A DNA stretch of 64,000 bases from Dictyostelium discoideum. Its lineage: Eukaryota. Made by a program: the position numbers and the translations under genes. The stretch is taken from positions 4,512,001 through 4,576,000 of the forward strand of contig CM000154.2 of NCBI GenBank assembly GCA_000004695.1. Reading direction: 5' to 3'. How positions within the stretch are numbered: position 1 is the first letter of the stretch; each line of letters opens with the position of its first letter. This document shows, in pieces, positions 1-20,622 of this stretch. The notes beneath the pieces are model-generated. The model did not search any database. It was not told the origin of the DNA and was given only the letters and a program-made list of their open reading frames with translations.

Positions 1-3000
1 CTGATAGCACAATAATTTGCAAACCACCATCAAATGAAATTTATACACCATATCTTCAATCAAAAGATTCAATCATTAATAAACCTGAACAATTCAAACA
101 TTTATATAGAGTAGATGAATTTAGTGTCAAAGAAGAAGATAATCAATTACTTTCAATTGAATTATTATTGTCATTGTTTTATAAACACATTAATAATAGA
201 TGTCCAAGTATCAATTTAGAATCATTAGCAACATTAGAATATGATCAATTCAAACAATTATATTATAATAGTTTAGTAAATGAAAATCTTTTCAAATTCA
301 TTTTTGAAATTTTAAAAAAATACCAAAACCTTCCTAAAATTAGTAATAATAATAATAATAATAATAATAATAATAATAATAATAATAATAATAATAATAA
401 TAATAAAAATAATGGTTATAATAATTATGAAAATTTATATATTAGAACAACTAAAGTAATGGCAAAACAGTTATTCCCATTAAAAGATGATGATTCTATT
501 ACAGATACACCACAATCATTATTTGAAATTGGTTATTTAAATGAATTTTATAAGAATTCAAATGTAATTCAACCATCAAATAATTTATTAAGTGAAATTA
601 TAGTTGAAACTCTAAAACCAATTTTAAATGAACCAATTGTATTTCGTATATTAGAAGCAGGTGGCGGTACTGGTAGTCTTAGTTTATTAATTTTAGAAAA
701 GATTTGTAAATTATTAAACGATAATAGTACAACATCAATCATTAATATAGAATTTACATGGAGTGATATATCTGCATCATTTTTCGCTGAAATTAAAGAA
801 AAGTTCTCATCATTTACAAATCACAACAATTTAAATATTATCTATCGTGTATTAGATTTAGAGAAACCATTATTAGATCAAGATCTTAAAGCATCCTATT
901 ATGATTTCGTTGTAATGTCAAATGTCATGCATGTCGTTAAGAAACTCAAACCAACATTAAATGAAATTCATAATATATTAACACCAAATGGTCAACTTTT
1001 ATATATAGAACCACCATACAAATCATTTTATTATGATTCAATTTTCGGTTGTTTTTCACAATGGTGGCCATCCTCGGATAGTGATATCGAATTAAGACCT
1101 GATAGATGTTGTATGAAACAAGAGAAATGGATTAACCTTTTAAATCAATGTAATTATAAAGATACAATAATGTCTGGTAATGATAATTTAGCATTTTTAA
1201 TTCAAACTAGAAAACCAACAATTAATGAAATCATTTCAGAAGAATCAAAATCATTAGATCAATTAAATTCTTTCAGTAATATTATTTTATTTAGCAATAA
1301 TAATAATATTAGAAATAATAATAATAGAAATAAAAATGATAGCCGCAGCAGTATACAAAATTTAATATCATTGAATCAAGAATTAAGACACAAAATCGTT
1401 AATATTAATAATTATAATGAATTTCAATCATGGATCACAAATAATCAAAATAAAGATGATTGTAATAAAACATTAATAATATTTTTAAAATCAATTGAAT
1501 CAACAATGAATACTTTTAATTTCAAAGAAATCACATTTGAATACATTCAAATTAATCAATTAATATTAAAATTAGAATTATCAAATAATTTCAAACATTT
1601 ATTATTATCATTAAATTCAAGCACTGATAATTATTTATCATCATCAATTATTGGTTCTGCTCGTTATTTCCACGTTGAATTCCCACAATTAGATTTATTA
1701 ACTTTAAATTATGATAATGTTTCAATTGAAAATAATCAACAATTATCATTAATCAATTACTTAATCAATTCAGATAATAATATTCAAATAGAATTTACAA
1801 TTAATAATAATAAAGTATACTATGAAAGATATTTTAAAAGATCAAATAATATTAAATCAAAACTTCAATCTGAATCATTTGAAACCAATAAAGATAATTT
1901 ATATATTCAATTAAATTCAAATTTAGAATACCAATTATATAGTAAAAAAGATGAATTAAATTCAAATGAAGTAGAGATAGAAATTAAAGCAACTGGTATA
2001 AATTATAAAGATTATTTAATGTATATCGGTATGATTGGTTCAGATTTAGATATTAAATATGGTAAAGAGTATGAAATTGAAAATGGTATTGGTATTGATA
2101 ATCCAAACATTGGTAATGACTTTAGTGGTATTATTACAAGATTAGGTAATAATGTAAAGAAATTTAAAGTTGGTGATCAAGTTTGTGGTATTGGTCCAAA
2201 AGCAAGTAGTTCACATGTTATTGTAGATTTCAATTTTATTTATTATAAACCATTTAATTGTAATCATTCAGTTTCAGCCTCAATACCATCTATTTATATT
2301 ACATCATTACATAGTATCTATAGTATTGGTAATTTAAAATCAAATGAATCAATTTTAATTCATTCAGCAGCAGGTGGTATTGGTATATCATCTTTAGATT
2401 TATTAAAAAGTAAACAACATCAAGGTTATATATTTTTAACAGTTGGTTCAAAAGATAAAGAAGAATACTTAACAAAGAAATATGGATCATTAATTACTGC
2501 TATCTATTCATCTCGTAATAAAAACTATGTCAAAGATATAAAGAATAAATTAATAGAATTAGGTGAAGTTGAACAACAAGGTGTAGATTTAATATTAAAT
2601 ACATTATCATCAGAGTATATGGATTCAAATTTCCAATGTTTAAATTTATCAGGACGTATCATTGATTTAAGTATCACTCATCTCACACCAAATGATTATA
2701 TGACAAATAATCATTTCAAATTTAATATGACATATAGTAATGTAGAAGTTGTCGATTTCACTAGTAAATTAATCAAAAGTTATTTAAAGAAAATTATCAA
2801 AATGATTAATTCAAATAAATTAGAGTTAAGTGTACCAATCATTGAATATTCAAATAATCAATTTAAAGATGCAATTGAATATATAAATCAAAGAAAACAT
2901 ATTGGTAAAATCATTGTTAATCATAATCAAGATGAATTTAATAGAGTTTATAATAATTATCAAAGTAATAACAATCATATCATAATGAAACATTCATATG

Positions 3001-19800: not shown

Positions 19801-20622
19801 TTTGATTTAATTGAATTATATCCACAATTAATTGCATTTGACGAACTTGAACAAGCTGTATCAATTGTTAAATTTTCACCTCTATTTTTTAAAATTAATA
19901 TAATAGTTAAAATTATAGTTGTGGTAAAAGAAAAGATAAATCAAAAACATACCTAAAATCAAAGCAATAACCAATTCTATTTGCAATAGAATGAGTTGTG
20001 GAACCAAAAATATTATTTTGAGTTTCCAATGGTGATCTTTGAAGATCATTATAATCAATAGTACTACTACCAATAAATGTACTTGTATTGGTACCACGTA
20101 AACTAATTGGATCAATACCACTATCTTCTAATGCTTCCCATACACCTGTTTGTTGATTTTATTTTAAAAATATAATTAATAAATAAATAAATATAAATAT
20201 CTAAATTTTTTGTGGAAAAGTTCAAAAACACTTAATAAATACATACATTTTAATAATAATCTTTGTTGTGGATCTATTGAACTGACATTATCATTGCTTG
20301 GATTAATTGCAAAGAAGATTGGATCAAATTGTTTCCATTCATCAAGTGGAAGTAAACCAGCAAACTTTGAAACGATTTCACCATTTAAATAATAATTATC
20401 AGACCATCTTTCAGAAGTTGTAACGATTCCATCCAATCCATTCAATAATTCATTAAATAATTGATTTGGTTTTGAAATTGATTCTTTTAAATTACCACTT
20501 GGAAATCTTAAACCAATACCAATCACTGCAACATCACCACTACCATCAACATCATCATAATCATTTCTATCCCTTATTAATTTATTATTATAAGTGCTAT
20601 TATTGTGAATATTTTCTGTCAT
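10863..20622 (-). CDS. Type I reducing polyketide synthase PKS-B, complete (KS-AT-DH-CMeT-ER-KR-ACP-R), 7 exons: complement(join(10863..11383,11493..18851,18923..19117,19219..19686,19757..19881,19953..20145,20247..20622)), about 3078 aa
   Basis: ATG at 20622 (MTENIHNN...), then [17 protein letters not shown] motifs: DTACSSS (exon 3), [14 protein letters not shown] and NIGHTEG (exon 4). AT: GQGSQ and GHSLGE. DH: [11 protein letters not shown]. CMeT: [14 protein letters not shown]: [11 protein letters not shown]: GMDSL. R: [14 protein letters not shown] and YVQSK. All introns are GTATGT/GTAAGT..AG, 71-109 bp. Exon lengths sum to 9237 nt (3079 codons) with consistent phases. The terminal exon 10863..11383 is colinear with PKS-A exon 2. 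Confidence 0.85.

Follow-up and report, generated by a model that had tools for sequence, protein, structure and literature searches.

The window analyzed here, a 64,000-nucleotide (nt) stretch of the Dictyostelium discoideum genome with ~22% G+C (GenBank assembly GCA_000004695.1, contig CM000154.2, positions 4,512,001 to 4,576,000 of the forward strand), opens with two convergent polyketide synthase (PKS) genes, A and B, which lie tail-to-tail with 5.2 kb between them and enclose a decayed third copy. We consider it likely, with a probability of roughly 0.8, that A, B and the pseudogene are duplicates within a tandemly expanding birth-and-death PKS family, patched by non-allelic gene conversion. 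The features of A and B that enter the comparison are the following.

3..5046, + strand: PKS-A large exon, truncated by the window start, frame open from base 3 (from translation and the splice model)
4092..4214, + strand: A ACP-R linker, 41 residues (40 Asn and 1 Ile), an (AAT)n tract
5047..5149, + strand: A last intron, 103 nt, phase 1, GTATGT..TTATAG, inside the R domain; joining of the exons restores the frame
5150..5670, + strand: A terminal exon, 521 nt including the TAA stop
5105..5529, + strand: identical tract, A arm, 425 nt, the longest perfect A/B identity
10863..20622, - strand: PKS-B, complete, 7 exons, 3078 aa, KS-AT-DH-cMT-ER-KR-ACP-R, with ATG at 20622 and stop at 10863
11383-10863, - strand: B terminal exon, 521 nt
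11384..11492, - strand: B last intron, 109 nt, phase 1, GTATGT..TTATAG, homologous to A 5047-5149
11004..11428, - strand: identical tract, B arm, 425 nt
12289..12354, - strand: B ACP-R linker, 22 Asn

A preliminary description of this DNA had proposed that A and B are convergent, colinear and near-identical, a view to be given up if their alignment fell below 80% identity. In a self-BLAST comparison, A (1-5691) aligned with the oppositely oriented B (16424-10844) across 5710 columns with 93.8% identity, gaps included (E = 0), and in a gap-free count 262 of 5655 aligned bases differed, corresponding to 95.4% identity; the proteins were 93.4% identical over 1814 codons, and the description therefore holds. 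A 1-5670 pairs with B 16424-10863, and not with a segment reaching to 18900 as had been supposed; the upstream part of B (16425-20622) corresponds to the portion of A beyond the left end of the window, where 2.6 kb of additional A sequence, obtained from locus L007, was 94.5% identical. Synonymous divergence (dS) between A and B was 0.089 and nonsynonymous divergence (dN) 0.031; the resulting dN/dS of 0.35 indicates purifying selection and thereby that both genes have been kept functional, and at this dS the split between them is not very recent.

The comparison drew on four sequences of one genome, namely A, B, the pseudogene and a fragment, and otherwise on copies from other isolates, three of which are represented by the PKS-subfamily loci L001 to L005. 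Over the 3' 5.7 kb in the multi-copy alignment, A and B were 96.0% identical, B and E1 (a copy in another isolate) 95.9%, and A and E1 95.0%, while in the AT-DH region, covered by the 2.6 kb of added A sequence, A and B were 95.7% identical and B was 96.1% identical to the first PKS of L003. B thus matches copies of other isolates as closely as it matches A, and the two genes do not form an exclusive sister pair. Whichever two copies are compared, homology ends ~25 nt beyond the stop codon and ~75 nt before the ATG of B.

The differences between A and B are distributed unevenly, with identity per 200 nt ranging from 84% to 100%, dS per 100 codons from 0 to 0.24, and an index of dispersion of 3.3 for the differences per 100 bp. 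In a four-taxon test of A and B with two other copies, from other isolates, as references, the three site patterns comprised 51, 23 and 27 sites and were clustered in contiguous blocks; the longest concordant A-B run comprised 65 polymorphic sites (permutation p = 0.0002), and a Sawyer-type longest-run test gave p = 0.0002 for A-B and likewise for B-E4. The 425-nt identical tract begins 45 nt inside the last intron and covers part of the terminal exon. At a uniform divergence of 4.6%, the longest identical run expected is ~120 nt, and the estimate n*p*(1-p)^425 for a tract of 425 nt is ~5e-7; because 45 nt of the tract are intronic, selection at the protein level cannot explain it. At columns 1500-1800 the pseudogene matches A but not B (98.9% versus 95.3% for A-B), in other blocks it matches B only, and it is probably part of the same exchange network, although three sequences do not suffice to tell donor from recipient. 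Of the two origins offered in the preliminary description, a recent inverted duplication or ongoing conversion, the patchy divergence (p = 0.0002) thus favors conversion, whereas a simple recent duplication does not agree with A and B being other than exclusive sisters or with a dS of 0.089.

The arrangement itself was also open to question, since collapse or chimerism of the assembly had been suspected at this locus and long-read validation proposed. Window positions 1-19561 are 100.000% identical, with no mismatch and no gap, to contig CM142511.1 of GCA_054883475.1, one of a group of genomes assembled de novo from Nanopore and Illumina reads (PMC12745789), and positions 12228-26818 match this independent assembly at 99.98%. 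Its gene calls, namely, a 3109-aa PKS on the + strand, three pseudogene fragments on the + strand and a 3078-aa PKS on the - strand, follow the same order and strands as those in the window. The suspicion is refuted for 1-19561, and the layout of A, pseudogene and B is not an assembly artefact.

The third copy was found where it had been placed, between the 3' ends of A and B, and its parts and flanks are as follows.

5671..6165, no strand: spacer between A and the pseudogene, AT-rich
6166-10345, + strand: pseudogene, whole, same orientation as A
6166..9268, + strand: pseudogene segment 1, 90.5% to B 19705-16569, with KS (from exon 4), AT and most of DH
6419..6480, + strand: micro-inversion of 62 nt inside the pseudogene, with a loss of ~17 nt and a short microhomology at each junction
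9264..10345, + strand: pseudogene segment 2, 91.9% to B 13387-12291 and 89.7% to A 3050-4220
10346..10862, no strand: spacer between the pseudogene and the B stop, AT-rich

The 5' homology edge of the pseudogene falls within the equivalent of intron 3, leaving the copy without promoter and without exons 1-3, and because these exons are missing the KS active-site Cys is absent as well. The two segments are joined, as read at the junction, across a deletion of ~3181 nt in which the DH end, cMT, ER and the KR start have gone; segment 2 holds KR from just past its GxGxxG motif, ACP and the Asn tract, and the 3' end lies just past (AAT)n, without an R domain. Frameshifting indels (+1 at 7149, -4 at 7202 and -1 at 9538) are accompanied by in-frame stops, and the exonic mismatch of segment 1 amounts to 6.1%. 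Since the equivalents of introns 4 and 5 are retained, the pseudogene is a DNA-level, non-processed duplicate and not a retrocopy. A three-way comparison counted 116 unique changes in the pseudogene, 64 in A and 57 in B; the pseudogene branch, ~1.9 times longer, would fit relaxed constraint after a roughly simultaneous three-way split.

Several details of the pseudogene and its flanks can be added. The inverted 62-mer matches 19371-19432 on the + strand, antisense of B, at 61/62 (versus ~90% in its flanks), and B was considered as its donor; this was rejected, since all family copies, at six loci, carry the 62-mer with 100% conservation, and for that reason no donor can be identified. Neither spacer matched anything in the six retrieved loci (L001-L006, from other or independent assemblies) or elsewhere in the window. 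A G+C-richer island at 6100-6165, containing a perfect 10-nt hairpin (6115-6124 / 6137-6146), lies directly 5' of the homology edge; it had no match in the other loci, and its interpretation as a transfer RNA (tRNA) or retroelement target was abandoned after a tRNA scan of the whole window gave no tRNA genes. The 718-aa open reading frame (ORF) of the pseudogene is on record in GCA_054883475.1, and exact look-ups of four further ORFs (the 461-aa oxidoreductase, the 262-aa pseudogene, the 95-aa B terminal and the 338-aa second-pseudogene ORFs) found none on record.

We infer conversion as the mechanism behind the mosaic and, together with it, the following order of events: (i) the three copies would have arisen by DNA-level duplication in a tandemly expanding birth-and-death gene family; (ii) the pseudogene would have been killed by 5' truncation in an intron, the micro-inversion, the 3.2-kb deletion, frameshifts and stops, and 3' truncation at (AAT)n; (iii) A and B would have remained ~95% alike through fairly recent shared ancestry (dS ~0.09) combined with non-allelic conversion among family members; and (iv) the youngest visible conversion patch would be the 425 bp across the last intron and the terminal exon.

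The similarity of A and B could also be explained by a single recent inverted duplication followed by independent and uniform divergence without gene conversion. The colinearity of the genes, the common position and phase of their last intron, the equal lengths of their terminal exons and their modest overall divergence would all follow from such an event. On the other hand, over-dispersed divergence, an identical tract more than three times as long as expected that runs into an intron, a phylogenetic signal that switches in blocks, copies in other isolates that match B as closely as A does, and homology that ends at the gene edges, with a spacer that is not symmetric, make this very unlikely, and we find that a single inverted duplication is not supported as the account of A and B. 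A history at the opposite extreme, in which A and B are old duplicates held similar solely by strong purifying selection on the protein, without recent shared history, finds some agreement in a dN/dS below 1 and in segments such as the 62-mer that are invariant in all copies. It is nonetheless highly improbable, given that dS is only 0.089 and that 45 nt of intron are identical within the 425-nt tract; what older paralogs look like here can be seen in the second PKS pair of the window, whose DNA shares only ~68% identity with A and B. That the inverted order results from a chimeric join or a mis-oriented contig in a repetitive PKS cluster is scarcely credible: assembly is difficult at PKS paralogs and (AAT)n tracts, a gap of 100 N is present in the window at 50919-51018, and the window departs from the long-read assembly from 26818 on, but the gapless match across both junctions, with the same order and strands, refutes this over 1-26818, provided that the second assembly was not guided by a reference, of which PMC12745789 gives no indication, and the ~5% difference between A and B is far too much for collapsing.

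A further possibility concerns the role of the pseudogene, which, instead of being inert, might act as a conversion donor that diversifies A and B, a natural reservoir for module shuffling. The blocks in which it matches A only (the 98.9% block) or B only, and the recurrence of pseudogenes between PKS genes in several isolates, can be cited in favor of this. However, A or B donating, or a third copy converting B, would fit the blocks equally well, and recurrent pseudogenes are expected from birth-and-death turnover alone, so we regard it as quite unlikely. The related conjecture that the dead copy is an active partner in three-way conversion, sometimes donating, and that inverted pairs with an embedded pseudogene might shuffle PKSs while avoiding the deletions to which tandem repeats are prone, seems to us improbable but somewhat less so.

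A number of points weigh against the birth-and-death and conversion reading. The reference copies in the four-taxon test belong to other isolates or cryptic species, and some incongruent blocks may reflect conversion there; uneven selective constraint adds to the patchiness. The independent assembly comes from a lab strain nearly isogenic with AX4, probably AX2-214 to judge from proteins that are the same as in AX4, and validates the assembly, not the age of the arrangement. The unique changes by codon position, 37/34/45 in the pseudogene versus 36/28/57 in A plus B, did not differ significantly (chi-square p = 0.39), with a trend in the direction expected for neutral change, and the route to the inversion of B cannot be reconstructed from the retrieved loci.

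Within the window, A codes for 1854 aa, open from base 3 to the TAA stop at 5670, with the large exon covering the DH end, cMT, ER, KR, ACP and the first part of the R domain; the full protein has 3109 aa in the annotation of the independent assembly, where the stop is identical. The splice model of B (exons 20622-20247, 20145-19953, 19881-19757, 19686-19219, 19117-18923, 18851-11493 and 11383-10863) contains six GT..AG introns of 70-109 nt and 6-17% G+C and yields one open frame with a single stop, and the independently annotated product at this position has the same length of 3078 aa. Sequence reading bore out the preliminary description exactly in the phase-1 intron shared by both R domains (A 5047-5149, B 11384-11492) and in the terminal exons of 521 nt (5150-5670 and 11383-10863); its estimate of about 41 Asn in the ACP-R linker of A and half as many in B agrees with 41 residues versus 22 Asn, whereas the coordinates given for the A linker, 4081-4205, were ~10 nt off (4092-4214). 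In the self-alignment B is shorter than A by 63 nt at this linker.

Pfam matches on B comprised ketoacyl-synt (1.8e-62), Acyl_transf_1 (1.1e-42), a weak PKS_DH_N (1.3e-4), Methyltransf_12, ADH_N and ADH_zinc_N_2, KR (2.5e-24) and ACP_SdgA_C (1.3e-33), and, C-terminal to the ACP, the thioester reductase NAD_binding_4 at residues 2685-2953 (6.6e-46). The catalytic motifs of B are intact (DTACSS, HGTGT and NIGH in KS, GHSLG in AT, GMDSL in ACP), as are all those of A downstream of DH (EAGGGTG, AAGGIG, TGQTG, GMDSL, GSTGFLG and GYIQCK), the KS and AT of A being outside the window. A is colinear with B across the 1854 aa visible, both carry the reductase motifs GSTGFLG and Y-x-x-x-K, and the DH motif, as read in translation, has a variant form. 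To judge from these domains and motifs, A and B are predicted to be functional iterative highly reducing type I PKSs with a C-terminal thioester reductase (the DdPKS-TR class), and both are presumably expressed and would release an aldehyde or alcohol polyketide. They may correspond to pks33 and pks34, in the chromosome 5 cluster next to cyp514A1. Protein searches matched only fragment models, up to ~1,550 aa long.

The gene adjoining B on its 5' side is the following.

22231..24338, - strand: cytochrome P450 gene CYP514A1, 5 exons, adjoining the B 5' end

Exon by exon, 574 of the 575 residues of Q54FM9 / XP_635583.1 were matched exactly, the unusual C-terminal extension included, which assigns the window to the AX4/AX2 lineage of D. 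discoideum. This extension of 74 residues within the 575 aa is encoded by an extra exon (22231-22452, - strand) and is lacking in CYP514A4 (502 aa), a close paralog; it could be an error of annotation and not genuine coding sequence. Together with CYP514A1, A and B would constitute a PKS-P450 secondary-metabolite gene cluster.

A second PKS pair follows in tandem on the + strand (window 27501-46976), with gene C at 27501-35280 and gene D at 37998-45733. The two are 93.7% identical to each other, and C stops at the ACP, whereas D extends into a reductase domain (NAD_binding_4) that C lacks. Between them, at 35459-37089, lies a KS/AT fragment, so that the motif of a PKS, a dead PKS and a PKS is repeated at C/D. 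In other isolates, the retrieved copies are all in tandem, again with a decayed PKS between PKSs and often with P450 genes; decayed copies between intact ones were located at L003 8240-12520, L004 2578-10968 and L005 4608-8926. Their deletions differ, leaving, for example, KS-AT or AT fused directly to R, or KS-AT plus KR-ACP, and since the lesions differ from isolate to isolate, pseudogenization has been recurrent and independent in the A/B subfamily. Among the retrieved loci, the inverted orientation of B is particular to this one. A single inversion that would turn a tandem order of PKS, pseudogene, P450 and PKS into that of the window was considered and discarded, as the strand of the P450 disagrees and no single event fits; the paralogy of the P450 and PKS genes is too tangled to call orthologs across isolates.

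Further observations concern the remainder of the window. Agreement between the window and the long-read assembly ends at 26818, a position inside a retroelement ORF with RVT_1 (window 25600-26835). Past this breakpoint the long-read assembly (L006 1-7521) contains a full retroelement, two small genes and a PKS fragment of the A/B family, 96% identical to B, and the window runs directly into PKS C. The discrepancy reflects either a mis-join of the reference at a repeat or a genuine structural difference between AX4 and AX2, and it lies outside the A/B finding. The 100-N gap, far from A and B, is flanked by (TTTTG)n and AT-rich simple sequence, and the 976-aa ORF that contains it (50801-53731) had no Pfam match. 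Right of the PKS cluster lie two housekeeping-type genes, one for an NDH2-type pyridine nucleotide-disulphide oxidoreductase (47095-48480, - strand) and one for an eIF-2B family protein (57449-59140, + strand). Tracts of (AAT)n / (ATT)n at 4084-4214, 21345-21546, 51740-52028, 53318-53586 and 61924-62120 cross-match at 80-99%; within genes they encode poly-Asn, and the matches are of simple sequence, not homology.

The biology described here is already known in kind. For D. discoideum, 40 DdPKSs are reported, of which 19 end in a reductase, and genes that neighbor each other on the chromosome show high homology (PMC12828403, citing Zucko et al. 2007); the number of DdPKS genes is otherwise given as 40-45 (Zucko et al. 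2007 as cited in PMC3188802 and PMC12828403). The expansion of the family is lineage-specific (PMC3188802), and the family is among the largest orthogroups of the genus (PMC12745789). A and B share the DdPKS architecture KS-AT-DH-cMT-ER-KR-ACP plus C-terminal thioester reductase, of ~3,000 aa (PMC12828403), and are ordinary members with no essential difference; clustered, highly homologous DdPKS genes and their reductase domains were on record before. Neither the anatomy of the pseudogene at base resolution nor the conversion tracts are described in those portions of the DdPKS literature that were covered.

The tgr allorecognition loci of Dictyostelium resemble the A/B locus in their clustered paralogs, many fragments and pseudogenes, inversions, and mosaic relationships between sequences with statistically supported tracts of conversion or recombination, but they form a hypermutable hotspot under diversifying selection (PMC12745789). 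A and B, in contrast, are under purifying selection, and no evidence of an elevated mutation rate was found at their locus. In the ampliconic palindromes of primate Y chromosomes, the arms of inverted repeats are kept >99.9% identical through arm-to-arm gene conversion. A and B are similar to these in being inverted copies a few kb apart that exchange sequence, and in that a crossover between the arms would invert, not delete, the spacer. Unlike the palindromes, however, they are 94-96% identical, their homology is confined to the gene bodies, and the spacer holds a decayed third copy in one orientation; arms of >99% identity and homology symmetric to a unique spacer are thus not found at A/B. 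By analogy with fungal highly reducing PKSs that carry an R/TR domain (NAD_binding_4), A and B would follow the same logic of NAD(P)H-dependent reductive release as an aldehyde or alcohol, whereas the DdPKSs are a lineage of their own and their long poly-Asn linkers are a peculiarity of Dictyostelium.

To conclude, this study contributes gene models resolved to the base, an anatomy of the pseudogene, statistical support for conversion and a confirmed assembly, and serves chiefly as a sanity check that this part of a hard-to-assemble D. discoideum PKS cluster has been correctly assembled. An identity of 95%, including a perfect stretch of 425 bp, matters for the design of guide RNAs and primers and for uniquely mapping RNA sequencing reads, and the similarity of A and B warns of functional redundancy in knock-out or expression work on DdPKSs. 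The locus is a single, well-documented case of gene conversion among eukaryotic PKS genes and leaves the general view of how such families evolve unchanged.

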